Origin: Escherichia phage Phi1
Reading direction: 5' to 3' (one strand)
DNA: 64,000 nt
Sequence record: EF437941
Made by a program: the position numbers and the translations under genes
In this document: positions 13,464 through 59,797 of the stretch, piece after piece
Layout: every line of letters begins with the position of its first letter
Position numbering within the stretch: the stretch's first letter is position 1
The notes under the pieces: generated by a model
The model's database searches: none
Seen by the model: the letters and a program-made list of their open reading frames with translations, nothing else
Told to the model about the DNA's origin: nothing

Positions 13464-13496
13464 CAGAAAACGGGGCTAGTATAAAACTAGTCCCCG
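13464..13496 (-). terminator. Rho-independent terminator downstream of alt
   Basis: CGGGGCTAGT...ACTAGTCCCCG hairpin followed on the minus strand by UUUUCUG. Confidence 0.5.
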
Positions 13497-13523
13497 TTTG
13501 AGTCAACCATTATTTCTTAAAAA

Positions 13524-15575
13524 TTACATTTTAAATTTATCTGGCATTGCGTCTACAGATACCAGATCAGCGATAAGCTGACGTAGAGTTGCCTTATCTG
13601 CTTTCTTACGTTCGGTTTTAGCTTCGCTAATGAAGCTGGAGAAAGACAGGTCAGAAGCAGGTTTAACAACACCTTCACGGATGAATGCATCACCGTCCGC
13701 GATCATCTCACCAGATTCTTGTAATGCTGCCAGTTCACTTTTGTTCATAATATGTGCCTCAATGTAATAAGTTTCTTGTGAATCCGTAGATGCCGTAGCA
13801 CGAGTTACCGTATCAAAGGATAACACAACACCGCGAGGAAGTAAAATCTCGCATTCTTTGTAAGCAAATGCTTTGTTACCTACTGGCAATACAGGGATGT
13901 TTTCCGCGCCAGCAATGGAGAAAGCAACATTAGCGCCACCTTCACCGCGAGATCCAGCCATAGAATCTACCCCAGCAACGGCACTAGCCACGTTTGCATT
14001 CCAGCCGCCAAAAATGTTAGGTGCAAGGGAAGTGCTCACGTAGTTTTTAAAGTAAAACGCTTTTTGCTTACGTGCAGTTTCCCACATTTGAGACCGGAAG
14101 TCCATACCACGATACAGAATAGTACCCGGATCAAGTTTAACGCCATAGTTAGAGAAGGCATTATCCAGTGCATCGCACATCTTGACCAATTCTTCTGGAT
14201 CTGCGATTCCCTCAAACTCTTCCAGCTTGCGATCAGTTAGGAAGTTGTTCATATTGATGTATGCTGCATCGGCATATTCGCTCAACACAAAACCTTCCGC
14301 GCCCGGCAGATCAAGATCAATATCTGCCATCATTTCACCCATGTTGCTAGCAATTGCTTCAAACATACCGGACGCAACATTACGAAGGGCATCGGTTTTA
14401 ATCTGGGTGATATGACTACGCAGCATTTCAGCTTTTACATCTGCTGGCATAGACTGGTCTACTCGATCCATTGCCAGGGCGGTGATCTTGTTTTCGAATA
14501 CTTCCTCGCTCATGATTTCTTTTAAGCGTTTGATTGATGCTGCGATAACTTCCGCAGACAACGGATCATATTGATCCTGAACTTTTACCAGTTCGCTTAC
14601 TGCGTATTTTGCATCGGCTTCGCTTTCAAAAATAGTACGCATGAAACCATAGCGAGTGATAATATCACTTGTCCAGTCATTCAGAGAACGGGCGGTTGAA
14701 CGTTCTAAGGCTTGACGGTCAATCAGAGTATTAAACTGTTTCTTAGGTTCTGCTTCGGTGATATCTTCTTCCGGTTTAAGATTAATTTTTTCTGGATGAT
14801 TCACATAGTCGCTGTTATAGGTCGCTTGAGTTTTCAGCATTTCTTCTTTAGTCAAACGAGATTTAGCCGCTACGCGTTGTTCCGCTTCCGCGTTTCGTTC
14901 TTCTTCTGACACAAGACTAGCCGCATATGCCTCATCTTTAGTCAGAGATTCACCAGTAGCCTTAGATACCCAGCGATCACCTAAATCACTTTCTACTTTA
15001 GTGAACAAGGATTCATCAAGTTTAATCCCTTTAATCTTATCAATCGCCATCCCGCGACGCTTGACAACAACTAAAGCGATCTTTTTGCTGGTCATTACTT
15101 CCTGCTGGAATACTTCAAACTTCGGTGTACGACGCACCAAACGCTCTATAACGCGCTTAACCAGTTCGGTCTTACCTTTCATGCGGGATACGTTAAAACG
15201 GAACATAACAGCGTCTAATTGCGCTTTACGGGCTGTTTCCATAACCACATCAAACGCACTTGCCATAACTGCAATCGGGTTATCGCCTAGACCATTTTTA
15301 AGCTGTACAATACGACCGCTTTTGTTCATTTCGCACAGTACAACATGTGCGGTCTTGTCACCCATACGAATGATTTTAGGTGTTTTGTTGGTGAAGTTAC
15401 AAAGACGGACAATCACATCTTTATCGCGTGTCTGTACTGCAAAAAGCTGTTTAGGATTCTGCTTCGGCTTTAAGCACTGTACCGGAGCAATACTGCCAAA
15501 GTTTTCTTCCTCTTCCGTCAACAGCCATTTCTCGAAAGATTCAATCATTAGATCGTCGATTTCTAAGTTAAACAT
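13524..15575 (-). CDS. alt: Alt ADP-ribosyltransferase (packaged)
   Basis: 683 aa (T4 Alt is 682 aa) with a C-terminal R-S-E type ART domain; conserved position after gene 54. Confidence 0.8.
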   Translation of the reverse strand: MFNLEIDDLMIESFEKWLLTEEEENFGSIAPVQCLKPKQNPKQLFAVQTRDKDVIVRLCNFTNKTPKIIRMGDKTAHVVLCEMNKSGRIVQLKNGLGDNPIAVMASAFDVVMETARKAQLDAVMFRFNVSRMKGKTELVKRVIERLVRRTPKFEVFQQEVMTSKKIALVVVKRRGMAIDKIKGIKLDESLFTKVESDLGDRWVSKATGESLTKDEAYAASLVSEEERNAEAEQRVAAKSRLTKEEMLKTQATYNSDYVNHPEKINLKPEEDITEAEPKKQFNTLIDRQALERSTARSLNDWTSDIITRYGFMRTIFESEADAKYAVSELVKVQDQYDPLSAEVIAASIKRLKEIMSEEVFENKITALAMDRVDQSMPADVKAEMLRSHITQIKTDALRNVASGMFEAIASNMGEMMADIDLDLPGAEGFVLSEYADAAYINMNNFLTDRKLEEFEGIADPEELVKMCDALDNAFSNYGVKLDPGTILYRGMDFRSQMWETARKQKAFYFKNYVSTSLAPNIFGGWNANVASAVAGVDSMAGSRGEGGANVAFSIAGAENIPVLPVGNKAFAYKECEILLPRGVVLSFDTVTRATASTDSQETYYIEAHIMNKSELAALQESGEMIADGDAFIREGVVKPASDLSFSSFISEAKTERKKADKATLRQLIADLVSVDAMPDKFKM

Positions 15576-15608
15576 TTTATATCCTCTAGTTGATAACCTA
15601 TAAACCTA

Positions 15609-15616
15609 TATTTATG
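15609..15616 (-). promoter_or_regulatory. Possible late promoter variant (CATAAATA) upstream of alt
   Basis: One mismatch from TATAAATA, about 30 nt upstream of the alt ATG. Confidence 0.3.
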
Positions 15617-15621
15617 AAAAA

Positions 15622-15643
15622 GGGGCTTAACGCCCCCCTTTTA
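15622..15643 (-). terminator. Hairpin / putative terminator between the small-gene array and alt
   Basis: GGGGC-TTAAC-GCCCC stem-loop flanked by T/A runs on both strands. Confidence 0.4.
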
Positions 15644-15856
15644 TTATAATGCACCATCGAGCAATTGCTCTAAGGTGTATCCTGAATAGTCTTTTTCAAT
15701 CAGGGTATATTTTCCTACTCGTTTAATACAACCGCGCATTTCAACGTATTCTGCGTAGTTGATGGTACGAGTTGTTCCATCTTCCAGTAATGCAGTACCG
15801 ATTTCGTTAATGCGGTCATAAGTTACGTCGGTAATGATGATTTCGATGTTAGCCAT
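15644..15856 (-). CDS. Small hypothetical early protein
   Basis: 70 aa ORF with GGAG RBS, preceded by an early promoter cassette. Confidence 0.5.
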   Translation of the reverse strand: MANIEIIITDVTYDRINEIGTALLEDGTTRTINYAEYVEMRGCIKRVGKYTLIEKDYSGYTLEQLLDGAL

Positions 15857-15892
15857 TTGATACTCCTTAGTAGTTCGTTTCGGTATGGGTGT

Positions 15893-15922
15893 ATTATGAT
15901 ATACACCCTCTGTTATGTCAAC
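15893..15922 (-). promoter_or_regulatory. Early promoter cassette (TTGACA-N17-CATAAT)
   Basis: Minus-strand GTTGACA, 17-nt spacer, CATAAT, then the conserved leader ACCCATACCGAAACGAA and GGAG RBS. Confidence 0.6.
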
Positions 15923-15928
15923 AACTTT

Positions 15929-16108
15929 TTAGAACATTTTTGAAATTAATTTTGCTTTGATTTCGCAGAGAACACCTAAAGATTTCTCGTCACCCGCTTT
16001 TGCTGCTTCTGATTGCATTTTTGAAATGGCTTCAATGTCAGTGCAATTATAAGCCGCTTGAACTTTAGCGATTGCGATGATTGCCGATTCGATGGTTAAG
16101 TGTTTCAT
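15929..16108 (-). CDS. Small hypothetical early protein (59 aa)
   Basis: ORF below the track cutoff (MKHLTIESAI...), read by hand, with RBS and its own promoter cassette. Confidence 0.45.
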   Translation of the reverse strand: MKHLTIESAIIAIAKVQAAYNCTDIEAISKMQSEAAKAGDEKSLGVLCEIKAKLISKMF

Positions 16109-16140
16109 GTTTGATTCTCCTTTCGTTTCGGTATGTGTGT

Positions 16141-16171
16141 ATTATGGGGGATCACCGATCCCCCTGTCAAC
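16141..16171 (-). promoter_or_regulatory. Early promoter cassette with GATC palindrome in spacer
   Basis: TTGACA, spacer GGGGGATCGGTGATCCCCC (perfect inverted repeat), CATAAT, conserved leader. Confidence 0.6.
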
Positions 16172-16177
16172 AACTTT

Positions 16178-16732
16178 TTAGTTATTTTTTAATTGCTCAT
16201 CTTGCAATAGGGAAATCACATGCTGGCGATGTTCTTCCGATTGAGGGACACCGAAAAAGTTTGTTTTGTAGAAATACTCTAATCGGTCTTCTCGTGTGCT
16301 CTCTTCCATCATGATCGCGGGTAGTCCGAGATTTCGGAAACGTCGCTTTTCTGCTGGCGTAAAATCACTGTAATACAGCATAGAATCATCGTTACCAGCA
16401 ATGCTAAACTCATCATTCATGAAGGAGAATATTGCGTTTAAACGCTGTTTACCGTCCACGATTTCGATCTCATAGCGAGAGCCATCATCAATCTTAGCCA
16501 TTGCGATAGCACCAACCGGAAAATCATTAATCAGGTTTTCGATAAACATACGTTTGTTTTCGGTGTCCCATACCAAAGGACGCTGATAATCTGGGTTCAT
16601 GTTGATATAGCCATCTTCTAACCACGCCTCATAAACAGAGATGACAAAGTTTTTAGTATTGGTATAGTAACGGCGTTTAGGCGTTAAACGGTTCATGTTA
16701 TAGTCTCCTGAATGGATCATCACGTAAATCAA
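16178..16732 (-). CDS. ParB/Srx-fold DUF262-like protein
   Basis: Motifs PDYQRPLVW and IVDGKQRLNAI resemble the DUF262 (GmrSD N-terminal) signature; last gene of a coupled operon. Confidence 0.5.
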   Translation of the reverse strand: MIYVMIHSGDYNMNRLTPKRRYYTNTKNFVISVYEAWLEDGYINMNPDYQRPLVWDTENKRMFIENLINDFPVGAIAMAKIDDGSRYEIEIVDGKQRLNAIFSFMNDEFSIAGNDDSMLYYSDFTPAEKRRFRNLGLPAIMMEESTREDRLEYFYKTNFFGVPQSEEHRQHVISLLQDEQLKNN

Positions 16733-17030
16733 TATCTTTTAAGAACTCATCCCATGAATGGCGGATATTGTTCTTAATTCTCCAGATAAGCGCAGGGATT
16801 GAACGCTCTCCCATCTGGAAGTAAGGATCATATGATCCGTATGCCCAATATGCTACTACAATTCCACAATCAGCGCAATAATATTCTATTTCACTTGCTG
16901 GCGACCAAAGTCCATCAATATGATCGGTGATCCTGCTTTCGATGTTATGGCTATGGCAATCAGGGCAACGGATGCAATGACCTTGTTTATCGTAATTTGA
17001 CGTTAGCGAATACTTAAACAATCTCATCAT
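16698..17030 (-). CDS. Zinc-ribbon protein
   Basis: CxxC...CxxC pairs (CIRCPDC, CADCG); overlaps both neighbours, suggesting translational coupling. Confidence 0.45.
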   Translation of the reverse strand: MMRLFKYSLTSNYDKQGHCIRCPDCHSHNIESRITDHIDGLWSPASEIEYYCADCGIVVAYWAYGSYDPYFQMGERSIPALIWRIKNNIRHSWDEFLKDIDLRDDPFRRL

Positions 17031-17743
17031 AGATCCTTATTGGCTTCAAATACTGCCTTTGCGAATCCTCGCGGGGTAAGTGACCTGATAGTCTTTGTTC
17101 TGGTTCCTTTCCCGCCTAGCTTAGAATGCTGTTTACTGTACCCTTTATTAATATGCAACGGTTTCTTTTCTGGCATTATAAAGCCTTGTCCGGTCCATAA
17201 GCAAGTCTTTTTCGGGTACATATCACGGGCGGCAATATACTCAGGAAACGTAGGATGTTTATCATCTTCCGGCAAATAACCGCCATATTCCCACGGATGG
17301 AACATGTAATCAGGCTTACGCCACATACTAGAGATAACGCTTACAGGATTCTCTATCATGTAGGGAACTCCTAGCCATTCACCCAAATAAGCGGTTATTT
17401 TAGCTGCCCGTACATCATGAACTTGAATCAATGGTCCTTGTTCTCGTTTCTTTCGTTCAAAGTGTGCAGCGCCACTAACAGCTAAATTGGTGCACGGTGG
17501 GAATGCAAATATAATATCCGGTTTCCCCCATTCAAGGTCCATTGCTCTTTCCAGCCAGTTCAAATCAATCCAGGTGTTTACATAAGTAATGTTTGGATGT
17601 TCAAATCTGGTATTATACTTTTTGTATGTACCGTGGTCGGCGTCATCCGCATTAAAGCAGACTACCTTATGACCTGCTTTAGCCCATTCTAGCCCCATTA
17701 TCCCCGATCCGTCAAAGTTGCAGAATATTAATTTTTGTTTCAT
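17027..17743 (-). CDS. Minimal cytosine-C5 methyltransferase-like protein
   Basis: 238 aa with motif I-like FDGSG, motif IV-like FPPC and motif VI-like ENP in canonical order; no obvious target-recognition domain. Confidence 0.4.
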   Translation of the reverse strand: MKQKLIFCNFDGSGIMGLEWAKAGHKVVCFNADDADHGTYKKYNTRFEHPNITYVNTWIDLNWLERAMDLEWGKPDIIFAFPPCTNLAVSGAAHFERKKREQGPLIQVHDVRAAKITAYLGEWLGVPYMIENPVSVISSMWRKPDYMFHPWEYGGYLPEDDKHPTFPEYIAARDMYPKKTCLWTGQGFIMPEKKPLHINKGYSKQHSKLGGKGTRTKTIRSLTPRGFAKAVFEANKDL

Positions 17744-17985
17744 ATACGACCCTTTAACCCAGCACAGATTTTAGTCGGTTCTTTACCGTGCCACATTAAG
17801 TAAAGTCCGTTAATGCGACCTTGTTTTGTGTGTGATTCTTTTCTGATCTTCTTATAGTGTCGTGCTTCCTCAACTGATTGTTTAGAATACCAATCATAAA
17901 GGAAGAGGCACAAAGGCCAACCATTAGCGGCCTTAATGCAGTTATTAAGAAATTCCTTATTGCGTTTAATTAATTTTCTTTTCAC
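17740..17985 (-). CDS. Small basic hypothetical protein
   Basis: 81 aa, Lys/Arg-rich, overlaps neighbours by 4 nt. Confidence 0.45.
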   Translation of the reverse strand: MKRKLIKRNKEFLNNCIKAANGWPLCLFLYDWYSKQSVEEARHYKKIRKESHTKQGRINGLYLMWHGKEPTKICAGLKGRI

Positions 17986-18233
17986 GCTGCCCCCATTGGT
18001 TTGATAGTAACAGAATCTAAAAGACCTTTGTTAGCCAGTTCGCGGCAAGTTTTCAGATCCGTAACTTCCCAGCCAGCCGCAATCAGGTTATCGATGAGGC
18101 TGTTAGCTACTTCCTCGCTCATGAAAGAGCACTGTTTGCCGATGGTGTAGCGCACACGATGTAATTTCAGTTTACGGAAGCCTTTAACGTTCAGGTCTTT
18201 AGCGATTTTCTTTGCGGTTTCGATGTTAGCCAT
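17982..18233 (-). CDS. Small hypothetical protein (first gene of the operon)
   Basis: 83 aa, GGAG RBS, directly downstream of a promoter cassette. Confidence 0.5.
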   Translation of the reverse strand: MANIETAKKIAKDLNVKGFRKLKLHRVRYTIGKQCSFMSEEVANSLIDNLIAAGWEVTDLKTCRELANKGLLDSVTIKPMGAA

Positions 18234-18273
18234 TGTTTGATTCTCCTAAGTGGTATCTCGTTTCGATGGTTGT

Positions 18274-18304
18274 ATTGTAGGGGGAGTTATCCTCCCCTGT
18301 CAAC
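18274..18304 (-). promoter_or_regulatory. Early promoter cassette (TTGACA-N18-TACAAT)
   Basis: Spacer holds the palindrome GGGGAGGATAACTCCCCC; conserved leader and RBS follow. Confidence 0.55.
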
Positions 18305-18317
18305 ACTTTTTATAAAA

Positions 18318-18485
18318 TTATTTGTTAATTTCTGGTGCGTTGCTAGGATAGTAACCTTCTTTAACTCCGAGGTATTTCGCAACCATCCCTACAATCTTCT
18401 GTGCTACTACAATGTCAAATTTCAGATAATCTTCGCCGTGGGTTTCAATGATATATGCTTCACATGCTGCTTTAGTCTCGAACAT
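18318..18485 (-). CDS. Small hypothetical protein (55 aa), paralog of 21593..21760
   Basis: MFETKAACEAYIIETHGEDYLKFDIVVAQK..., roughly 89 percent identical to the second copy. Confidence 0.5.
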   Translation of the reverse strand: MFETKAACEAYIIETHGEDYLKFDIVVAQKIVGMVAKYLGVKEGYYPSNAPEINK

Positions 18486-18518
18486 TTTGATTCTCCTATT
18501 TCGTTTCGGTATGTGTGT

Positions 18519-18548
18519 AGTATAGGGGATCTCCCGACCCCCGTCAAC
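18519..18548 (-). promoter_or_regulatory. Early promoter cassette (TTGACG-N17-TATACT)
   Basis: Conserved architecture with a GATC-containing GC-rich spacer. Confidence 0.5.
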
Positions 18549-18561
18549 AACTTTTTTAAAA

Positions 18562-18843
18562 TTATTCGTGATTAGTTTCGATGTTGTGCATTTTGCACCA
18601 GTTCAACCAATCACCCATATCTTGATAGTTGATGCTTTTATCTGCTGCCATCGTTTTTGTCTTGATACCCATATGTGCGTTATGAGTAAGCATTTTTACA
18701 GTGAACTCAATTTTATCGCCTTTAGCTTTAACATCAACCAGTTTGGTCCACTGGCTACCAGCGCCGCGAATGTTCATACCAACGATGTTTCCGATGTATG
18801 CTTCTTTGTTTTTCAGGATTTCGGTTGCTTTGATGAATTTCAT
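18562..18843 (-). CDS. Small hypothetical early protein
   Basis: 93 aa with RBS and own promoter cassette. Confidence 0.5.
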   Translation of the reverse strand: MKFIKATEILKNKEAYIGNIVGMNIRGAGSQWTKLVDVKAKGDKIEFTVKMLTHNAHMGIKTKTMAADKSINYQDMGDWLNWCKMHNIETNHE

Positions 18844-18876
18844 TTTTGATTCTCCAGTTCGTTTCGGTATGGGTGT

Positions 18877-18906
18877 ATTATGCTATGTTCTTACTTTGGT
18901 GTCAAC
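18877..18906 (-). promoter_or_regulatory. Early promoter cassette (TTGACA-N17-CATAAT)
   Basis: Conserved -35, -10 and leader. Confidence 0.6.
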
Positions 18907-18913
18907 AACTTTT

Positions 18914-19183
18914 TTAGATATTTTCAGAAATAAATTTTAAAACTTGACGTAAATGTTTCTCATCTTTGATAGTCGCCGGAAGTTCTTCTTTTACTTCCTG
19001 TGCAAGATAGATATTTCCGTTCCAAGTGAAAGATCCGTCTTTGTTTACGCGATAGCTGAACATCCACTCGCAATCATTTTCGATTTCATATACACACAGA
19101 AGGGTGTAATCGTTAAAGCTATTGATTTCAAGGTCGAAGCCGTGACGTTTTGCAAAGTTGGTAGTGGTTTTAGTCAGTGCCAT
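18914..19183 (-). CDS. Small hypothetical early protein
   Basis: 89 aa with RBS and own promoter cassette. Confidence 0.5.
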   Translation of the reverse strand: MALTKTTTNFAKRHGFDLEINSFNDYTLLCVYEIENDCEWMFSYRVNKDGSFTWNGNIYLAQEVKEELPATIKDEKHLRQVLKFISENI

Positions 19184-19223
19184 TGTTTGATTCTCCTAAG
19201 TGGTATCTCGTTTCGATGGGTGT

Positions 19224-19253
19224 ATTATGCTATAGGTCGGATCTGGTGTCAAT
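19224..19253 (-). promoter_or_regulatory. Early promoter cassette (TTGACA-N17-CATAAT)
   Basis: Conserved -35, -10 and leader. Confidence 0.6.
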
Positions 19254-19275
19254 TCTTTTTTTAAAATTTTATGCA

Positions 19276-19302
19276 ATAAAAAAGCCGACGCTAAGGTCGG
19301 CT
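19276..19302 (-). terminator. Rho-independent terminator
   Basis: GCCGACCTTAGCGTCGGC hairpin followed on the minus strand by UUUUUUAUU. Confidence 0.65.
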
Positions 19303-19309
19303 AATAAAA

Positions 19310-19618
19310 TCATTTAGACAAATAATCATTCAGTGCAATCCGGTCGGCGTATGCTGGTGTTACGTCAATCGCAATCACTTTAACGCGTGCTTTCTTGCGA
19401 CCTGGGTTTTCACGTAACCAGTGCTCATGACCGTGAACATTTTTATACTGCGATGCTTCTTCGAAGGTACGGATCGGACCTGGGTAATCAGCGTAAAGGA
19501 TCTCTAGATCTTCGGTGATGTAAAAATATACATCATAATTACTGTTCTCTAGTTTAAGCAGAGACTTTCGGAACATTGGGAGATTTTCGCGGGTAAATTC
19601 AAAGATATTATCTTTCAT
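19310..19618 (-). CDS. H-x-H-W family small protein (member 1)
   Basis: HGHEHWL ... VIAIDVTPAYAD motif block shared with five paralogs. Confidence 0.5.
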   Translation of the reverse strand: MKDNIFEFTRENLPMFRKSLLKLENSNYDVYFYITEDLEILYADYPGPIRTFEEASQYKNVHGHEHWLRENPGRKKARVKVIAIDVTPAYADRIALNDYLSK

Positions 19619-19668
19619 AGTATTATCCTCAATAGTTGGATGAGAAGGGGCGTTAACGCCCCCATATA

Positions 19669-19956
19669 TTAAAACAGTCCTTCATGTACACCGTAGTAGA
19701 GTTCGTCGCTGATAATTTCATTAATGCGACGGTGTGCATATTCCTGATTTGCGAAGTTGTCAGCAAGTTCTACTTTAGTTTCGCCGTCATGAGTCCATTT
19801 AGTGATAACTTTACCATCTGCAAATTTGAAGTTGAACTCTTTAGCTACTGCATCGCGTACCAGACGTGCAAACTTATTGTTGCGGATTGCATTGTCGGTT
19901 TCGTGTGAAGCGTGAGCAAATTTGTTAACTTTCAGAGTGATAGTGATGTATGCCAT
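19669..19956 (-). CDS. Small hypothetical protein, paralog of 22995..23306
   Basis: Shares an AKEFN(F/T)K block with the 22995..23306 product. Confidence 0.5.
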   Translation of the reverse strand: MAYITITLKVNKFAHASHETDNAIRNNKFARLVRDAVAKEFNFKFADGKVITKWTHDGETKVELADNFANQEYAHRRINEIISDELYYGVHEGLF

Positions 19957-20002
19957 AATTTGATTCTCCTAGTTAGAAAGTGTATCTCGTTTTGATGGGG
20001 AT

Positions 20003-20032
20003 ATTATGCTATATCCCCGATCCGGTGTCAAC
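20003..20032 (-). promoter_or_regulatory. Early promoter cassette (TTGACA-N17-CATAAT)
   Basis: Conserved architecture; spacer palindrome GGATCGGGGATAT... Confidence 0.55.
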
Positions 20033-20037
20033 ACTTT

Positions 20038-20316
20038 TTATAAAATAATTTTTTGATATTTTTCTATGATGTTCGTGTAAGTCACATCAACCGCTAGCAC
20101 CGTTGCTTCGAATCCACCGTTTAGCCAATGGCTATGATCATGGTCGTGAAAGAAACCTAGACCAGTACGAAGACCTTCTTTATATTCTGCGCGTACATTC
20201 AGTTTGTCGTCGATAAACAGATAAAACCATGAATTTTTACTAGGATTGATGATACAACCTTTCAGATTAGGGAGAATATCACGACTAAGAATAAACTTAT
20301 CACCTACTTTGAACAT
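20038..20316 (-). CDS. H-x-H-W family small protein (member 2)
   Basis: HDHDHSHWL ... VLAVDVT motif; start placed at the internal Met with GAGGA RBS. Confidence 0.5.
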   Translation of the reverse strand: MFKVGDKFILSRDILPNLKGCIINPSKNSWFYLFIDDKLNVRAEYKEGLRTGLGFFHDHDHSHWLNGGFEATVLAVDVTYTNIIEKYQKIIL

Positions 20317-20320
20317 AATA

Positions 20321-20641
20321 TTAGTCCTCACTTATAAGGTCAAACCAATTGTTTTTCGCATAATGCTTAATGCGTGCTTGATCTGCTTCCGCTGGTGATA
20401 GATTCCATGCAACCACTACAACTTCTGACGCATCGTCATCCGTTTCTGATACCCAATGATTGTGATTCATACAGTTATTTGCTATCGAGTGAGCAAATGA
20501 TTTCATCACTGGAGACGTATAATCATAGTAACGGATTTTCAGATTTTCATCAACATACAAATAGATCGTATAAGGTTTATATTCAGTAACCAGTAACAGA
20601 CAGTTACGCAATTCTGGGAAAATCTTTTTAGTTAATTTCAT
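20321..20641 (-). CDS. H-x-H-W family small protein (member 3)
   Basis: NHNHW ... VVVVAW..SPAEAD motif. Confidence 0.45.
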   Translation of the reverse strand: MKLTKKIFPELRNCLLLVTEYKPYTIYLYVDENLKIRYYDYTSPVMKSFAHSIANNCMNHNHWVSETDDDASEVVVVAWNLSPAEADQARIKHYAKNNWFDLISED

Positions 20642-20843
20642 ATTCTAGTTCTCCGTAATACACGGTAATCCATTTTTCTTCATACTTTGTATCTTTCCAA
20701 CACACAATACCGTTTACTGTGCAATCTTTGGAATTGACGAATGATTCATATTGTTCCGCATCTTCCATCATTTCATGAGCGGTCTTTTCATCGAATATAT
20801 CGCAGATCGCTTTATATGCTCGATAATCTTTAAATTTGCTCAT
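20628..20843 (-). CDS. Small hypothetical protein, paralog of 20846..21055
   Basis: MSKFKDYRAY... shares its N-terminus and a cysteine pattern with the adjacent gene. Confidence 0.45.
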   Translation of the reverse strand: MSKFKDYRAYKAICDIFDEKTAHEMMEDAEQYESFVNSKDCTVNGIVCWKDTKYEEKWITVYYGELEYEIN

Positions 20844-20845
20844 AA

Positions 20846-21055
20846 TTAACACCACTCAAGAGTTTTTGAAAACACATCTATCCATTGTTGAGTATATGCG
20901 GTTTCTTTCCATGATACAATACCAGTCGAATAATGGTTTTTGTTTCCAGAAAAGGACGGGCATTTTGATGCATCTTCCATCATCTTTTCGGCGAACTCTG
21001 GTTCGTATACTCGCAAGATCTGTTGATATGCTTTATAATCTTTAAACTTACTCAT
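20846..21055 (-). CDS. Small hypothetical protein, paralog of 20628..20843
   Basis: MSKFKDYKAY...; tandem duplicate. Confidence 0.45.
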   Translation of the reverse strand: MSKFKDYKAYQQILRVYEPEFAEKMMEDASKCPSFSGNKNHYSTGIVSWKETAYTQQWIDVFSKTLEWC

Positions 21056-21336
21056 AACAACACCACCGATACATCGTAATCATTCGCGGCCTTATCGGCT
21101 TCTTCAACCGACATAATACCTTCTGCGACAATTGGCATAGGGTGATCGTGATTCCACCAATGGTCATGTATATCAATTTCAGTTTTGCCGGAAAATGAAT
21201 CATGTTTGACGTTTTTCACTTTATACCCGATGTGACCGTCGTGGTCAATAAAGATATAGTTTCCGAAAATCGGTGTCTGTAAAATCATACCGAAAAATTT
21301 TTCTTTGTTGTTCGGGTCGAGTGTAATCATTTTCAT
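21052..21336 (-). CDS. H-x-H-W family small protein (member 4)
   Basis: IHDHWWNHDHP ... motif. Confidence 0.45.
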   Translation of the reverse strand: MKMITLDPNNKEKFFGMILQTPIFGNYIFIDHDGHIGYKVKNVKHDSFSGKTEIDIHDHWWNHDHPMPIVAEGIMSVEEADKAANDYDVSVVLL

Positions 21337-21348
21337 AATATATTCCTC

Positions 21349-21528
21349 TTAGAAAGGGATGGTCATTTCTTGAGCTTGTACATTCTCATTAGGATTAAAC
21401 TTAATCCAACCGATATTGTCTACCAGCATATGCACATTTTTATCATATCCTACGTGAGTAGTCAACACTAAATGTGATTTACCTTCAACGATGATTTCCA
21501 TGTACTTCTGAACTTCGATAGCTTTCAT
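21349..21528 (-). CDS. Small hypothetical protein (59 aa)
   Basis: ORF below the track cutoff (MKAIEVQKYM...), read by hand, with RBS downstream of a promoter cassette. Confidence 0.4.
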   Translation of the reverse strand: MKAIEVQKYMEIIVEGKSHLVLTTHVGYDKNVHMLVDNIGWIKFNPNENVQAQEMTIPF

Positions 21529-21560
21529 TTTGATTCTCCGTTTGTTGTCTTGATGGGAGT

Positions 21561-21590
21561 ATCTTACTACTCCCTTTAATCATTGTCAAC
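21561..21590 (-). promoter_or_regulatory. Early promoter cassette (TTGACA-N17-TAAGAT)
   Basis: Variant -10 with the palindrome GGGAGTAGTAAGATACTCCC around it. Confidence 0.45.
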
Positions 21591-21592
21591 TA

Positions 21593-21760
21593 TTATTTGT
21601 TAATTTCCGGTGCGTTGCTTGGATAGTAACCTTCTTTAACACCCAGATATTTTGCAACCATTCCGGTGATCTTCTGTGCTACTACGATATCGAATTTCAG
21701 GTAGTCTTCACCGTGGGTTGCTACAAAGTATGCTTCGCATTCTGCTTTAGTCTGGAACAT
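21593..21760 (-). CDS. Small hypothetical protein (55 aa), paralog of 18318..18485
   Basis: MFQTKAECEAYFVATHGEDYLKFDIVVAQK...; the track ORF has an unlikely N-terminal extension across the promoter. Confidence 0.5.
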   Translation of the reverse strand: MFQTKAECEAYFVATHGEDYLKFDIVVAQKITGMVAKYLGVKEGYYPSNAPEINK

Positions 21761-21793
21761 TTTGATTCTCCTATATCTCGTTGGTATGTGTGT

Positions 21794-21823
21794 AGTATAG
21801 GGGATCGGTGATCCCCTGTCAAC
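21794..21823 (-). promoter_or_regulatory. Early promoter cassette (TTGACA-N17-TATACT) with GATC palindrome
   Basis: Spacer AGGGGATCACCGATCCCCT. Confidence 0.55.
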
Positions 21824-21830
21824 AACTTTT

Positions 21831-22139
21831 TTATTCTTCATCTTCATTTTTATCTTTATATGCGTACTTCATAAATTTGTCTGCTACTTTGTCCGCGTTT
21901 TCAGGTTCTACGTCTGACGCTAGGACAACAGCTAGTTCGGTTTTGTCGTTTCCATCATACCAATGATTATGAGTGTCGTTTTCTTCGATATAAAACGAAT
22001 CATTTGGAGTTGTGCGACAATATACGTCTAAATTCCCATCGATATAAAAGATCCAATCCGAATACAAAATGATTGCGTTAGCCAGATTTTTATTGTCTCT
22101 TACAAAAGGTTCCGCGACAAATAGCTTAGTTTGTTCCAT
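21831..22139 (-). CDS. H-x-H-W family small protein (member 5)
   Basis: THNHWY ... LAVVLASDVEPENADK motif; start at the internal Met with GAGGAAA RBS. Confidence 0.5.
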   Translation of the reverse strand: MEQTKLFVAEPFVRDNKNLANAIILYSDWIFYIDGNLDVYCRTTPNDSFYIEENDTHNHWYDGNDKTELAVVLASDVEPENADKVADKFMKYAYKDKNEDEE

Positions 22140-22155
22140 AATATTTTCCTCAAAA

Positions 22156-22347
22156 TTATACAGCTTCGTAAACTTCCCAATGTTCAGCGCCAACACGCTT
22201 AACGAAAAGGTTTTCTTTGATGTTATTCATAAACGTCTGGATGGATTTAATGCGGTTGGAAGGTTTCCAGTCTTCGTTGGCATTGCGATGATACATAATA
22301 ACATTACCAGTTCGCTTATATTCAGCAACCATTTTAAGACCACACAT
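22156..22347 (-). CDS. Small hypothetical protein
   Basis: 63 aa with GAGGATAA RBS. Confidence 0.45.
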   Translation of the reverse strand: MCGLKMVAEYKRTGNVIMYHRNANEDWKPSNRIKSIQTFMNNIKENLFVKRVGAEHWEVYEAV

Positions 22348-22404
22348 AATATTATCCTCAATTTGTGGGAGAGTATTACCCCTCCCAATGATTGTTATGT
22401 TATA

Positions 22405-22725
22405 TCACACAAAATGGCGTGTCAATGCTTCTTTTGCGGTTCCGCTAAGACTTTCGATCTCGCCTGGCATAACATCAACCGCCAGAACTTCTACAACATC
22501 CTCGGACCCTAACCAGTGAGTATGGCCTTTGTAGAACTTGATAACCAGACTACCTTCCTCATCCCATTTAACACTATCGCTAGCCCACCACACATCACCG
22601 TCGATAAAGTTGATGTAAAGCACACTACGCCACATTGAATTAATTACTTTCAATACTGCGCCTTTCATCTCTTCCACGGTATGGTCTTCCATTTTGAAGA
22701 CCTCACCTACCTGAACTTTTGCCAT
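22405..22725 (-). CDS. H-x-H-W family small protein (member 6)
   Basis: KGHTHWLGSEDVVEVLAVDVMPGE motif. Confidence 0.5.
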   Translation of the reverse strand: MAKVQVGEVFKMEDHTVEEMKGAVLKVINSMWRSVLYINFIDGDVWWASDSVKWDEEGSLVIKFYKGHTHWLGSEDVVEVLAVDVMPGEIESLSGTAKEALTRHFV

Positions 22726-22742
22726 TTAGTCACCTCTCTTTA

Positions 22743-22922
22743 TTACATAACAATCACGCCAGCCGTTGAAAGTTGATGTTTCAACTGAGCATTTTCTGCT
22801 ACCGTCAAATCAATGATTTCTTGTGACGCTGCAATCATATATCCATTGGTGATATTGTTTTGCATCAGTTCAATGGTTTCTTCGTTGTAGCGGATTTTAG
22901 CGATGATTTCGTTGAAGTTCAT
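22743..22922 (-). CDS. Small hypothetical protein (59 aa)
   Basis: ORF below the track cutoff (MNFNEIIAKI...), read by hand, with RBS downstream of a promoter cassette. Confidence 0.4.
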   Translation of the reverse strand: MNFNEIIAKIRYNEETIELMQNNITNGYMIAASQEIIDLTVAENAQLKHQLSTAGVIVM

Positions 22923-22956
22923 GATTGATTCTCCTAGTTCGTTTCGGTATGTGTGT

Positions 22957-22987
22957 ATTATAGGGGATCTCCCGATCCCCTGTCAAC
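22957..22987 (-). promoter_or_regulatory. Early promoter cassette (TTGACA-N18-TATAAT) with GATC palindrome
   Basis: Spacer GGGGATCGGGAGATCCCC. Confidence 0.6.
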
Positions 22988-22994
22988 AACTTTT

Positions 22995-23306
22995 TTAAAG
23001 TTTTTCCATGATAACGGTCATAATTACATCTTCTGCGCGAGCGGTCAGATTATCAGCGTCAGCATGTGGGCGGTTGGTTGTTACAGAGATAACACCGTTG
23101 CGCACTGGTTTGATATTGATATCAAGATGATCCGCGAAACGTTCGCCAGTTACAGAATGAATTTTGGTGTTAAATTCTTTTGCCAGTGCCTTGCGAACTT
23201 CACGAATCAGGGTAGCGTTTTTCAGTTGGTTCTCCGCGCTCATGGTCTTCTGGGTGTTCATGGTTCCGTCGAAGTCAATCATTGGCAGCGTTACGATGTA
23301 TTTCAT
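22995..23306 (-). CDS. Small hypothetical protein, paralog of 19669..19956
   Basis: 103 aa with the shared AKEFNTK block. Confidence 0.5.
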   Translation of the reverse strand: MKYIVTLPMIDFDGTMNTQKTMSAENQLKNATLIREVRKALAKEFNTKIHSVTGERFADHLDINIKPVRNGVISVTTNRPHADADNLTARAEDVIMTVIMEKL

Positions 23307-23351
23307 TTTTGATTCTCCGTTTAAGAAAGTGTGTTTCGTTTTGATGTGTGT

Positions 23352-23382
23352 ATTATAAGGGGATCACCGATCCCCTGTCAAC
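23352..23382 (-). promoter_or_regulatory. Early promoter cassette (TTGACA-N18-TATAAT) with GATC palindrome
   Basis: Spacer GGGGATCGGTGATCCCCT. Confidence 0.6.
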
Positions 23383-23393
23383 AACTTTTTGAA

Positions 23394-23870
23394 TTATTTT
23401 TCTTGATGCTCGCGCTCGTACTTTTCGAAATAAAATTCTACTGGCTGATCGTGGATTGAAAGCAAGCCAAAGCGTTTAGCCGCTCGCAATCCCATATTGC
23501 GCTGAATGTACTTCTGGAAGTTCTCGCGTATACACTTACGCCAGGATTCTAAGCCCATACAGCTTTTATAAAGATTGCATTGCACACACGCCGGATTCAT
23601 GTTATCAAGTATATCATGCTCCGGTTTATGCATTCCTACAACCTTATACTTCCACGATCCATCATCATTACGAGCAATTCGTCCATTTTCATCATAGACT
23701 ACCTTTGAGCGTCGTAATACTGGTTTGATGTGGTCTGCGTGCCAGCGATCCCCTAGTTCCTCGCCACAATAGGCACAACGTCCACCATATTTCATTTTCA
23801 GGATCTGGCGTTGCTCTTTCTTTGACAATTTTTTAGGTTTAGGGGCTTTCGCCCCTTCATTATCACACAT
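23394..23870 (-). CDS. HNH endonuclease
   Basis: CAYCG ... HADHIKP ... N ... CVQCN: HNH core with a Cys4 zinc site; start overlaps the ligase stop. Confidence 0.7.
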   Translation of the reverse strand: MCDNEGAKAPKPKKLSKKEQRQILKMKYGGRCAYCGEELGDRWHADHIKPVLRRSKVVYDENGRIARNDDGSWKYKVVGMHKPEHDILDNMNPACVQCNLYKSCMGLESWRKCIRENFQKYIQRNMGLRAAKRFGLLSIHDQPVEFYFEKYEREHQEK

Positions 23871-25365
23871 CGAATACCTCTTTTACTGTATTTGCAGTGG
23901 TCTTGTCGTAGCGAATACGTTTGATGATCGGGAGAAATAAAGAGAACTCCGGTTCATCTTCTTTACGTGATTTGCTTCGAATGTACCCGTTGCATGTCAT
24001 CTCAATGACTTTTCCGACCAGGTTATGCCGTTCAGCCCATAACATTTCTCGGTCAAGATCATTTCGACGATCGAACGGAATTACACGTTCAATACCATCA
24101 TCACATTTTTCGGTTGTGGTGTCAGTCAATCCCGATCCGGTGTTAGTCATCATTCGTCCGCACGCACTACGGACAGTAAAACCGCCCACCTTATTAGGAT
24201 CTTTACTATGCGGATATACATCAACAATTTCCGCGTCGAAGTCAATCACTTCTTTAAATTTAACCTGATCTTTACTGCGACGATCTTCAAATACACCATG
24301 TAAATTTTTAAGGATAATACCTTCTAATCCCATGTTTACATAGCGATGATATACTTCGCGAGCTTCATCGAGATTGTTAACTACGGTATTTTCGATTATC
24401 TGAACACGAGGATCGTTAAGTTCTTCAACAATCTGTTTTAGTTCCTCAAATCGATCTTTATACTGCTTCGTTGCTTTCTCGTTACCGTAGTACACATCAC
24501 GGTCGATAACATCCCAGACAGTGTAAACAATACATTGGGCTTCTTCTTTTGGAATAGTTCCTTTCAGTGATTTGTTGAGGATACCATTTCCGGTCTGACG
24601 ATCTGCAACAACGGATTCTTTCACTGCTTCCGTTACTGGCGTTAATGGCATTTCCTCTTCTTCAAATATCCATGACAGAGTACCATCATAAACGCTCTCA
24701 ACGAAGTTCTGCGCTGGTGTTTGCGAAAGGGTAGGCATATATACCAATTCGCCATCTAGAACAATTCCACGGCCTCGTAAACGCTCTAAAACCGCAAACA
24801 AATCATCAAGCCCTTGATAGGTATTACCTGAGCGGGTATAGATTGCTAATGTTTCCCCGTCAATATCAGCCATCCCACGAGCGCCATCGCTTTTAAGTTG
24901 TGCATACGCCGGATACTTGATATTAGCAATAGTCTTGTCAGAACATGACGATGCAAGGTGGCACGGCTGCTGGGGGATCAGTTTCTTCCATACCTTGTTT
25001 GCAGTGGTAGCGGAACAACCGCATTCCAGGTCACGATTCAGGACCATCATTGCAACTTTAGCATCATCCTCTGACAAGCAAGTCAGAGTATCGGTAACTA
25101 GCTGTAATGCTGCATTACCAGTTACTTGACGCGTGGCAAGTTTATTTTTAAAGACCTGTAATGCACCGGATAAAGACAATACAGACGAATAACGCGATGG
25201 TTTATCGTATTTCTTTACGCCAAACGTAACCTGTTTGCAATATGCCAGATAAAAGCATTCTTTCAGCGTTTCATTGCTCGCGGATTCTTTCAGAATCTTT
25301 TCTTTCAGCGATGTTTTGTCTGTTGCTGCAAGCTGATTAATGATATTAAGAATTGACATTTTCAC
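23863..25365 (-). CDS. 30: ATP-dependent DNA ligase gp30
   Basis: 500 aa matching T4 DNA ligase, including the adenylation motif AQLKSDGAR. Confidence 0.9.
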   Translation of the reverse strand: MKMSILNIINQLAATDKTSLKEKILKESASNETLKECFYLAYCKQVTFGVKKYDKPSRYSSVLSLSGALQVFKNKLATRQVTGNAALQLVTDTLTCLSEDDAKVAMMVLNRDLECGCSATTANKVWKKLIPQQPCHLASSCSDKTIANIKYPAYAQLKSDGARGMADIDGETLAIYTRSGNTYQGLDDLFAVLERLRGRGIVLDGELVYMPTLSQTPAQNFVESVYDGTLSWIFEEEEMPLTPVTEAVKESVVADRQTGNGILNKSLKGTIPKEEAQCIVYTVWDVIDRDVYYGNEKATKQYKDRFEELKQIVEELNDPRVQIIENTVVNNLDEAREVYHRYVNMGLEGIILKNLHGVFEDRRSKDQVKFKEVIDFDAEIVDVYPHSKDPNKVGGFTVRSACGRMMTNTGSGLTDTTTEKCDDGIERVIPFDRRNDLDREMLWAERHNLVGKVIEMTCNGYIRSKSRKEDEPEFSLFLPIIKRIRYDKTTANTVKEVFDV

Positions 25366-31991: not shown

Positions 31992-32021
31992 TATTATGCT
32001 ATGGCAAGATCCGATTGTCAA
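31992..32021 (-). promoter_or_regulatory. Early promoter cassette (TTGACA-N17-CATAAT)
   Basis: Conserved cassette architecture. Confidence 0.55.
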
Positions 32022-32069
32022 CACCCAACAACAAAAAAAGTCGCCACTATGGGCGACTTTGAACAAACA

Positions 32070-34257: not shown

Positions 34258-34287
34258 ATTATAGCGGGGATTTCTCCCCGCGTCAAC
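34258..34287 (-). promoter_or_regulatory. Early promoter cassette (TTGACG-N17-TATAAT)
   Basis: Spacer palindrome GCGGGGAGAAATCCCCGC; immediately after the nrdA stop. Confidence 0.5.
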
Positions 34288-39149: not shown

Positions 39150-40519
39150 TCTTTTTCAAAAGATTTTACGATATACATGATAGTGCTCAATTCAGACGGC
39201 GCTACTGTTTCTGTGTAGCCATCCGGCATATCTTCTTTTGATATATAGGAAGTTTTATCTTTCATTGCTTCCTTGATCTTGTTCTCTAAGTCTAAGATCT
39301 TTTGACCGTCTTGTAAAGTCAATTCATAAAAGATCTCGTGATCGAACTTAGAAACACGAGATTGGTTTCTCATTCGTTCTTGTGTTGTTAAATTGGTTAT
39401 TCCAAACTTAACTGCCGTTAACGATTTATGTTTGTTTAGTTTCTGTACATAAAATGTTCCAGGTTTTATAGGTTGATAGCCCATTTTAGAACATTTTCTG
39501 CATCTTGTTCCAGATTGTACAAATTTACTATATGTTGGTGTATACTCATGACCCATTTCACATGTAATTTTTAATCTTGTTTCGACCCCAGAATAGCTAC
39601 CTCCACAAAATCCGTGAAATTTATTATTACCCAACACGGAAATTATATTTTTTATTGCATCGTCTTCGTTCCTGCGACCACTACATACTCCACATCTATA
39701 TCCACCATGAAAAAAATCACTAAACGCAATATTGTACTCGTGTCCATTATTACACGTCATATTAAGTCTCGTCCTTATATTTTCGTATTTTCCACCAACA
39801 AATCCATTGAAAATATGGTCTCCTTTGACCGAATTAATTCTATCTAACGCGGTAGTTTCTGTTAAACGCTTGGTCCCGCAGCATTCTGGGCATCTAGTTC
39901 CTTGAATAAAATGACCATACGTTGGTTGATATATGTGTCCATTATTACACTCTATTATTAACTTTGTTTTATGTGCACCAATGTAAGCACCACCAACAAA
40001 TCCATGAAATTTTTCATCGACCAGTGCGTTGATGATATTTTGTATAGCTTCATCATTCGATTTTTTGTGTTTATTATTGCAAATTGGACATGTATTGACA
40101 CCACCAATTATGCTGGAATAACATCTATGGTATTCGTGACCGTGTTCTTTACATTTTAATATAATTTTAGATGTCGATACATTTTTAAACTCTTCTGTCG
40201 TGAAACCCATAAACTCGCTATCTGTTAATGAAGATTTGATATCATCAATAACTTGTTCGGTTGATTTCTTTGCATTGGGTGCGCATAAACCACACTTGGT
40301 TTTTCTTCCAACTAGTGTTTTAATAGTTTTTGTGTGTGTTGTGTGTCCTTTATCGCACATTATACATACCCTTGTATCACATCCTTTCCAATCATCAACA
40401 AACCCGAGAAATTTGTAATTTATAGAGTGACAATATTCGCGTACTGTATTCTCGTGAATTGTCGGTTGTTTTTGTCTCTTACCAACGCAAATGTCCTTAG
40501 CAAAGTATGTTTTCATCAT
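39137..40519 (-). CDS. Five-fold zinc-finger repeat protein with T5orf172 (GIY-YIG-like) C-terminal domain
   Basis: Five repeats of roughly F.GF.GG.Y...(T/R)L...C..GH.Y...(F)..G..C..C; C-terminus GTFYVQK...AVKFGIT resembles T5orf172; start at the internal Met with GGAGGA RBS. Confidence 0.5.
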   Translation of the reverse strand: MMKTYFAKDICVGKRQKQPTIHENTVREYCHSINYKFLGFVDDWKGCDTRVCIMCDKGHTTHTKTIKTLVGRKTKCGLCAPNAKKSTEQVIDDIKSSLTDSEFMGFTTEEFKNVSTSKIILKCKEHGHEYHRCYSSIIGGVNTCPICNNKHKKSNDEAIQNIINALVDEKFHGFVGGAYIGAHKTKLIIECNNGHIYQPTYGHFIQGTRCPECCGTKRLTETTALDRINSVKGDHIFNGFVGGKYENIRTRLNMTCNNGHEYNIAFSDFFHGGYRCGVCSGRRNEDDAIKNIISVLGNNKFHGFCGGSYSGVETRLKITCEMGHEYTPTYSKFVQSGTRCRKCSKMGYQPIKPGTFYVQKLNKHKSLTAVKFGITNLTTQERMRNQSRVSKFDHEIFYELTLQDGQKILDLENKIKEAMKDKTSYISKEDMPDGYTETVAPSELSTIMYIVKSFEKELTA

Positions 40520-40546
40520 TTTTATCCTCCGTTGTTCGATGTGTGC

Positions 40547-40575
40547 ATGATACATGACCACATAAGCATGTCAAC
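40547..40575 (-). promoter_or_regulatory. Early promoter-like element (TTGACA with weak -10)
   Basis: -35 well conserved; -10 degenerate (TATCAT). Confidence 0.35.
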
Positions 40576-40599
40576 ACCTTTTTCATAAATTTTTAGGCA

Positions 40600-40625
40600 A
40601 TAAAAAAGCCTCCCCGAAGGGAGGC
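40600..40625 (-). terminator. Rho-independent terminator after gene 32
   Basis: GCCTCCC-TTCG-GGGAGGC hairpin followed on the minus strand by UUUUUUAUU. Confidence 0.7.
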
Positions 40626-40636
40626 TGTAAAATTCA

Positions 40637-58679: not shown

Positions 58680-58709
58680 AGTATAGGGGATCGCCGATCC
58701 CCTGTCAAC
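58680..58709 (-). promoter_or_regulatory. Early promoter cassette (TTGACA-N17-TATACT) with GATC palindrome
   Basis: Spacer AGGGGATCGGCGATCCCCT. Confidence 0.55.
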
Positions 58710-59759: not shown

Positions 59760-59770
59760 AACTTTTTAAA

Positions 59771-59797
59771 ATAAAAAGCCGACCACAAGGATCGGCT
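59771..59797 (-). terminator. Rho-independent terminator
   Basis: GCCGATCCTTGTGGTCGGC hairpin followed on the minus strand by UUUUUAUUUU. Confidence 0.6.

Follow-up and report, generated by a model that had tools for sequence, protein, structure and literature searches.

Why should the space between the two boxes of a promoter be filled by a GC-rich palindrome? The question is raised by a stretch of 64,000 nucleotides (nt) from Escherichia phage Phi1 (sequence record EF437941, called the window here), in which six promoters carry an inverted repeat with paired GATC sites between their -35 and -10 boxes. An initial annotation of this DNA had noticed the repeats and proposed that selection acts on their structure or on the GATC pair. 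Judging from homology and position, the six palindromes are the stem-loops of a published class of elements, the "promoter-early stem-loops" (PeSLs), in the subclass that carries the stem-loop between -35 and -10, and finding them is a rediscovery of something already known. Probably, the promoter spacer doubles as an RNA hairpin that blocks read-through and thereby insulates the small genes on either side.

Pattern counts and a promoter scan bear out that GC-rich palindromes fill the spacers of six promoters, and the coordinates given for them are those of the spacers, right to within 1 nt. The sequence GGGGATCNNNGATCCCC occurs exactly four times in the window (16147-16163, 21800-21816, 23359-23375 and 58686-58702), compared with a chance expectation of 0.07, and none of 100 dinucleotide shuffles reaches four. 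Site 22963-22980 has identical arms around a 4-nt centre (GGGGATC-TCCC-GATCCCC on the plus strand), and site 18525-18541 is imperfect (GGGGATC-TCCC-GACCCCC), with a single GATC left. The description of constant arms around a variable central triplet thus holds for arms and centre, except that the centre is a tetramer at two sites; of the six sites, 18525-18541 alone has not kept both GATCs.

The strand has to be corrected: the six elements are read on the minus strand. All are minus-strand promoters with TTGACA or TTGACG, a spacer of 17-18 nt and TATAAT, TATACT or CATAAT, and they score 10-12 of 12 positions in the scan, the best promoter matches of the region. Pairing reaches one A-T pair beyond the palindrome, joining the last base of the -35 box to the first of the -10 box. 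Each palindrome is embedded in a dispersed repeat cassette of about 80 nt, with an A-rich stretch of the (T)AAAAAAGTTG type directly 5' of the -35 box at all six sites and, 3' of the -10 box, a conserved leader and GGAGAATCAA, followed by an ATG 30-50 nt from the -10 box. The six cassettes are as follows.

16141..16170, minus strand: PeSL early promoter; -35 TTGACA at 16165-16170, 18-nt spacer GGGGGATCGGTGATCCCC, -10 CATAAT; palindrome at 16146-16164, predicted RNA hairpin of -15.2 kcal/mol; annotated as a promoter in Enterobacteria phage GEC-3S.
18519..18547, minus strand: PeSL early promoter; TTGACG, spacer GGGGTCGGGAGATCCCC, TATACT; an A-to-G change in the 5' arm leaves a single GATC, and in the sense RNA the altered base pairs as G.U; at this junction, GGGGATC-GGGA-GATCCCC is the form in most relatives.
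21794..21822, minus strand: PeSL early promoter; TTGACA, spacer GGGGATCACCGATCCCC, TATACT; evident orthologue of PeSL206/205 of phage RB49; loop GGT in 6 relatives and ACC in 5.
22957..22986, minus strand: PeSL early promoter; TTGACA, spacer GGGGATCGGGAGATCCCC with a 4-nt loop, TATAAT; evident orthologue of RB49 PeSL210/209.
23352..23381, minus strand: PeSL early promoter; TTGACA, spacer GGGGATCGGTGATCCCC(T), TATAAT; evident orthologue of RB49 PeSL211/210.
58680..58708, minus strand: PeSL early promoter; TTGACA, spacer GGGGATCGGCGATCCCC, TATACT.

The identification with PeSLs rests on the phage group as well as on the elements. Bases 15000-24000 of the window are 98.9% identical to GEC-3S, and 57 further RB49-like phages of the genus Krischvirus (family Straboviridae) match them as well. 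RB49 is collinear here over open reading frames (ORFs) ORF185-212, which are small orphan genes in a row, encoded on the minus strand and flanked by alt and the DNA ligase gene. At five of the six sites the GEC-3S record has an annotated promoter, complete with -35 and -10 signals; the stretch compared does not reach the sixth.

PeSLs were defined in RB49 and phi1 as repeated intergenic motifs with an E. coli sigma-70 consensus, an AT-rich stretch located upstream of the -35 box and a stable stem-loop, often polyG followed by polyC (Arbiol, Comeau, Kutateladze, Adamia, and Krisch 2010, Genome Biol Evol 2:140; PMC2839356). Five subclasses were distinguished by the position of the stem-loop, one of them with the stem-loop between -35 and -10. 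The stem-loop consensus of RB49 and phi1 was later given as G(N)-loop-C(N) (Comeau et al. 2014, Genome Biol Evol 6:1611; PMC4122927), and the early promoter consensus of RB49 is consistent with the mapping of transcript 5' ends (Nolan et al. 2006). The sites in the window have all of these features: sigma-70 boxes whose 17-18 nt spacers lie within the 16-18 nt of the definition, on the same coding strand as the neighbouring genes, an AT-rich stretch that holds the upstream stop codon, a 3' end with a Shine-Dalgarno sequence and a start codon, and stems of 7-8 base pairs made of a G-run and a C-run (predicted RNA hairpins of -12.6 to -15.2 kcal/mol) that fill the spacer. They are intergenic among the small orphan genes of the hyperplastic region and homologous to the PeSLs of RB49 and phi1. 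Genus, genome region (RB49 ORF185-212) and cassette layout are the same as in the published elements; nothing essential differs, and the window simply has its own combination of loop and -10 alleles. The annotation's remark that a hairpin in a promoter spacer is unusual therefore does not apply to this phage group, in which PeSLs were described in 2010. A search of the whole window against Rfam at gathering thresholds gave no match.

Individual sites can be matched to elements that have been assayed. In the RB49 intergenic sequences, PeSL206/205 reads TTGACA-GGGGATCGGTGATCCCC-TATAAT, PeSL211/210 reads TTGACA-GGGGATCACGTATCCCC-TATACT with the hairpin GGGGAT-CACGT-ATCCCC, and PeSL210/209 reads TTGACA-GGGGATCACCGATCCCC-TATACT; each begins at the TAA stop codon of the upstream gene. 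They precede the same genes as window sites 21800, 23358 and 22963, respectively. By this gene context, sites 21800 and 23358 are evidently the orthologues of RB49 PeSL206/205 and PeSL211/210, which bear the same names as the assayed elements. A clone with the wild-type PeSL206/205 gave about 13,000 Miller units, and the stem-loop of PeSL211/210 cut lacZ expression about as strongly as the rrnB T1 terminator (Arbiol et al. 2010). Recombination between PeSLs was found to yield gene deletion, insertion and replacement as well as mini-circles, with one crossover mapped inside the loop (Arbiol et al. 2010). Promoter, terminator and recombination activity were thus demonstrated experimentally by others for named RB49 and phi1 elements, and the present analysis shows the identity and orthology of the window's sites, the maintenance of their hairpins and the swapping of their alleles.

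What is it, then, that is kept in these spacers, the hairpin or the GATC pair? We compared orthologous junctions in 11 relatives, in bases 1-50,000 of RB49 and in Krischvirus contigs from metagenomes. Scans of metagenome and viral contigs for the cassette flanks returned mostly unrelated promoters, and only about 15 Krischvirus cassettes from them were useful. The window itself already holds cassettes in which the stem is built differently.

18274..18303, minus strand: sister PeSL with the GATC-free spacer hairpin GGGGAG-GATAA-CTCCCC.
34258..34286, minus strand: sister PeSL with the GATC-free spacer hairpin CGGGGA-GAAA-TCCCCG.
15893..15921, minus strand: sister PeSL whose hairpin GGGTGTAT-ATCATA-ATACACCC overlaps the -10 box and does not fill the spacer.
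20003..20031, minus strand: sister PeSL; its hairpin GGGGATAT...ATATCCCC extends over the -10 box, and spacer positions 4-7 hold a single GATC.

Across the genomes compared, loops vary freely (GGT, ACC, GGC, GCC, ATC, ACA, GGGA, GCGA) and the arms remain paired. Upstream of the gene at 22922, at the junction of cassette 22957..22986, the GATC hairpins GGGGATC-GGGA-GATCCCC, GGGGATC-ACC-GATCCCC and GGGGATC-GCC-GATCCCC are found in some phages and the GATC-free alleles GGGGAG-GTTAAA-CTCCCC and GGGGAG-TATAA-CTCCCC in others. At junction 18303 the situation is reversed, with GGGGAG-GATAA-CTCCCC in 11 genomes and a GATC-type hairpin in MIZ2. At junction 23381, 6 of 11 relatives have GGGGAT-CACGT-ATCCCC, in which one GATC is lost and pairing retained, and at two junctions GGGGGTC has cost a single GATC, its altered base pairing as G.U in the sense RNA. 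Among hairpins overlapping the -10 box there is a double compensatory change (GGGGATAT/ATATCCCC compared with GGGTGTAT/ATACACCC); at junction 20003..20031 the relatives carry the doubly compensated form GGGTGTAT...ATACACCC. Throughout, the G4/C4 portion of the arms is constant and the ATC/GAT portion changes.

Because loops, arms and single GATCs have been swapped with pairing kept, it is evidently the hairpin, not the GATC pair, that is maintained; the pair is the commonest allele in the genus and is dispensable. Of the two targets of selection that the initial annotation had offered, structure thus fits the exchanged arms and the compensatory double change, and the GATC pair is contradicted by relatives that have GATC-free or one-GATC hairpins at the same junctions. 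Beyond the genus, TTGACA-GGGG...CCCC-TATA spacers in unrelated viral contigs have no GATC pair, and their hairpins extend on average 1.7 base pairs beyond those that the search pattern forced.

Some loops form reverse-complement pairs, GGT with ACC and GGC with GCC, at site 21800-21816, at junctions of the relatives and at three metagenome loci. A single junction (21800-21816) can have either GGT or ACC between identical flanks, which suggests either inversion of the palindrome in place or conversion from other copies.

One could also argue that the GATC sites are a methylation switch: Dam, whether of the phage or of the host, would methylate them in the spacer, and their state, full on incoming DNA and hemimethylated or unmethylated right after replication, would tune or shut the early promoters, possibly with SeqA as the reader. 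A GATC methylase is available: RB49 encodes a T4-type Dam, annotated as GATC-specific and with a DPPY motif (39922-40734; the gene lies outside the window), a dam gene is present in 57 Krischvirus records, and the host E. coli has its own Dam. PeSL spacers contain GATC about nine times as often as the window does on average, and cassettes without the spacer hairpin (19224-19252, 20003-20031 and 31993-32021, minus strand) have one GATC each in the spacer, at positions 4-7 or 5-8. Junction 20031 has this GATC in all 12 genomes, with variable bases in the 3 nt that precede it; junction 19252 is hypervariable in the 5 nt 3' of the GATC.

Still, orthologous promoters do not all keep their GATCs. 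Some natural alleles of a given junction are without both (GGGGAG...CTCCCC) or without one (GTATCCCC, GGGGGTC), and non-hairpin spacers have lost theirs independently in other phages (AATC, TATC, GATA). The spacer hairpins of unrelated phages do without GATC, and the enrichment is confounded by the common descent of the cassettes. In the window as a whole GATC is unremarkable (361 observed compared with 339 expected under a Markov model), and genome-wide avoidance or excess of the site was rejected on the same count. Well-known Dam-regulated promoters, namely pIN of the IS10 transposase, P1 cre, pap and agn43, likewise combine GATCs in the promoter region with an available Dam methylase; their GATCs, however, lie in a hexamer or a regulator site and their dependence on methylation has been shown, whereas those of PeSLs lie in the spacer and are dispensable in natural alleles. 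The other T4-like PeSLs use different stems (Comeau et al. 2014), and the GATC content of the arms is mentioned in neither PeSL paper. Our search of the literature on GATC in promoter spacers and Dam found nothing relevant to this phage group. We consider a methylation switch very improbable.

A narrower idea makes a methylation sensor, acting via the phage Dam and perhaps SeqA, of the spacer pair and of the lone GATC that hairpin-less cassettes have at positions 4-7; it seems highly improbable to us. If it were true, early-promoter strength would differ between incoming, fully methylated genomes and freshly replicated ones, which would help to time the shut-off of early genes. This T4-type phage is not known to have MotA-dependent middle transcription. 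That the sites are dispensable in natural alleles does not mean that they have no effect on promoter strength, but the palindromes would hold new biology only if Dam methylation does affect these promoters.

A methyltransferase-like gene does lie close by. The ORF at 17027-17743 (minus strand) was considered as a GATC methylase and rejected: its FPPC and IENP motifs give it the look of a C5-cytosine enzyme and not of Dam. It is annotated as 'DNA methyltransferase/Dcm' in relatives and has no Pfam or NCBIfam match, only phrog_757. With 238 amino acids it is the first of three genes in a block (16178-17743, minus strand) behind the promoter at 16170; the second is a 110-amino-acid ORF with a weak zinc-ribbon match and the third a 184-amino-acid ORF with a GmrSD_N/DUF262 domain. 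About 175 nt of the methyltransferase-like ORF match Salmonella genomes of siphovirus size at about 81%.

If the hairpin is what counts, what does it do? The window has 17 canonical cassettes, 11 with a hairpin in the promoter core and 6 without. A classical terminator within 75 nt upstream precedes none of the 11 core-hairpin cassettes and four of the six hairpin-less ones (Fisher exact p = 0.006). The four terminators, each a hairpin followed by a T-run, precede cassettes 19252, 32021, 40574 and 59758; the hairpin-less cassettes 18905 and 39148 have no upstream terminator either.

19283-19302, minus strand: intrinsic terminator of the classical kind, AGCCGAC...GTCGGCT and then a T-run; the hairpin-less PeSL 19224-19252 lies just downstream of it.
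About 32030-32060, minus strand: classical terminator, hairpin and T-run.
About 40585-40615, minus strand: classical terminator, hairpin and T-run.
About 59765-59795, minus strand: classical terminator, hairpin and T-run.

Because core hairpins and upstream terminators are distributed in this complementary way, as they should be if the core hairpin takes the place of a terminator, the result supports the insulator proposal of 2010. It also agrees, as do the comparative data and the published function of PeSLs, with the annotation's suggestion of a hairpin that acts on read-through transcripts. We infer that the hairpin works as an RNA terminator at these six sites. Like Rho-independent terminators, PeSL hairpins are G/C-rich RNA hairpins at the end of a gene, and the two are apparently interchangeable in front of sister cassettes; they differ in that PeSL hairpins have no U-run (the tail is UAUAAUAC) and are embedded in a promoter.

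Promoter and terminator meet in another form at 13478-13506 (minus strand). Here a promoter-like TTGACT-17-TATACT has its spacer, -10 box and downstream bases in one long hairpin followed by a T-run (AAACGGGGACTAGTTTTATACTAGCCCCGTTTTCT, -18.9 kcal/mol), and the promoter overlaps a classical terminator. It sits upstream of a gene for a 274-amino-acid ADP-ribosyltransferase-like protein.

The same palindrome could be read as DNA. A 17-base-pair inverted repeat might be the operator or recombination site of a dimeric phage protein, serving to shut off early promoters or to target recombination to the cassettes, a possibility on which Arbiol et al. (2010) had already speculated. Perfectly symmetrical arms around a freely varying centre are typical of dimer sites, the core GGGGA...TCCCC is common to nearly all alleles, and the reverse-complement loops (GGT/ACC, GGC/GCC) point to inversion at the DNA level. 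Yet the position of the stem-loop varies between cassettes (in the spacer, over the -10 box or upstream), the distance between half-sites ranges from 4 to 8 nt, and hairpin-less cassettes have terminators instead. Hence, a role in RNA fits better than a fixed operator, and we regard a protein-binding palindrome as quite improbable.

Another question is how far the likeness of the arms can be attributed to shared ancestry. In Sf20, KFS-EC and ECD7 the gene between cassettes 15921 and 16170 is missing, and the junction is formed by a chimeric cassette; in the comparison with 15856-16170 of the window, the limits of the loss lie exactly at cassettes. ORF192 (ORF192c in RB49) is extra in RB49 and MIZ2 and absent from the window (compared with 18485-18562). 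Such presence and absence of genes bounded by cassettes matches the PeSL-mediated shuffling described in 2010. At junction 22986, each of three hairpin alleles is paired with both -10 variants, TATAAT and TATACT, which implies break-points or conversions within a few base pairs of the hairpin. A 300-nt direct repeat (18264-18563 and 21539-21838, 78% identity) comprises a cassette and a 55-amino-acid orphan gene and is a duplicated module.

The cassettes are homologous repeats that recombine and whose copies are homogenised, and the identity of their arms is no evidence against shared ancestry. The annotation's argument that conservation of the arms goes beyond shared ancestry alone is therefore weak. 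Taken to the extreme, the palindrome could be a neutral passenger with no function of its own, spread and kept uniform by duplication and gene conversion. The clear homology of the cassettes and the fine-scale recombination among them would suit such a passenger, as would the PeSLs that work with neither hairpin nor upstream terminator (18905, 39148). A passenger would hardly account, however, for differing arm sequences that all stay paired, for compensatory double changes, for the complementarity of hairpins and upstream terminators, or for the extra base pairs in the spacer hairpins of unrelated phages. Single changes, counted on the sense strand, gave 3-4 G.U events compared with one A.C, albeit in very small numbers. 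We consider a neutral passenger extremely unlikely.

The insulating hairpin can be put together as follows. PeSLs are regulatory cassettes of about 80 nt that, in RB49-like phages of the T4 type (Krischvirus), lie between the small early genes of hyperplastic regions. Read along the minus strand, a cassette comprises, in this order, the upstream stop codon within an A-rich, UP-like stretch (AAAAAGTTG), the -35 box, a spacer of 17-18 nt, the -10 box, the conserved leader ACACACATACCGAAACGA, the ribosome-binding site GGAGAATCAA and ATG. On DNA, the palindrome would be a mere spacer in a very strong promoter for host RNA polymerase. In RNA coming from the upstream cassette, the same bases would fold into a G/C-rich hairpin of 7-8 base pairs, which would attenuate or terminate read-through and so insulate each small gene cassette. 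The repeated cassettes would also serve the phage recombination system as short patches of homology, by which genes may be shuffled, deleted and duplicated and the copies kept alike. The GGGGATC...GATCCCC arms, the commonest allele of the genus, would then have been spread by recombination.

Several points weigh against this explanation. The hairpins are followed by UAUAAUACAC, without a U-run; a consensus terminator scan flagged none of the six, and because the U-run is missing they are not classical intrinsic terminators, a class to which we therefore do not assign them. The published terminator test concerned one stem-loop on a plasmid (Arbiol et al. 2010). The elements assayed in that study were synthesized and are matched to the RB49 copies by name, and the phi1 copies may differ slightly. 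Folding z-scores are moderate, -1.1 to -3.2 in a 61-nt context. Recombinational homogenisation could keep the arms identical without selection on the hairpin. Finally, the terminator model leaves unexplained why GATC is in excess in the spacers, including those of non-hairpin cassettes: there are 14 GATCs in 16 PeSL spacers, when about 1.5 are expected from the frequency in the window, although the copies are related by descent.

Similar cassettes are found elsewhere. Those of other T4-like myoviruses share the promoter and stem-loop flanking small variable genes, for which a role in modular shuffling was proposed; their stems differ (the nt-1 pair has A3-4G3-loop-C3T3-4, the PST pair AGNA-loop-TCNT) and have no GATC pair (Comeau et al. 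2014). Four IMG/VR contigs of 174-366 kb, from large and jumbo phages, contain cassettes such as AATAAGTG-TTGACA-GGGGATGAACAATCCCC-TATAAT-AACTCCATCGACAAC, with a layout and leader like those of Krischvirus PeSLs and a stem GGGGAT/ATCCCC without GATC. Dozens of marine contigs carry a different, highly repeated consensus-promoter cassette (AAGTTGTTGACAAGGTGCTTGTACGGGCGTATAATACACGCATAAA...), which surfaced solely through the flank pattern that it shares with the scan query.

To the published account of PeSLs our study adds two things. The comparison of about a dozen genomes indicates that the hairpin is kept and that its sequence, including the GATCs, is replaceable, and within the window core hairpins and classical upstream terminators are complementary. 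For annotating the window, the cassettes show where early promoters lie, where one transcription unit gives way to the next and where, in the hyperplastic region, recombination is likely to have its break-points.

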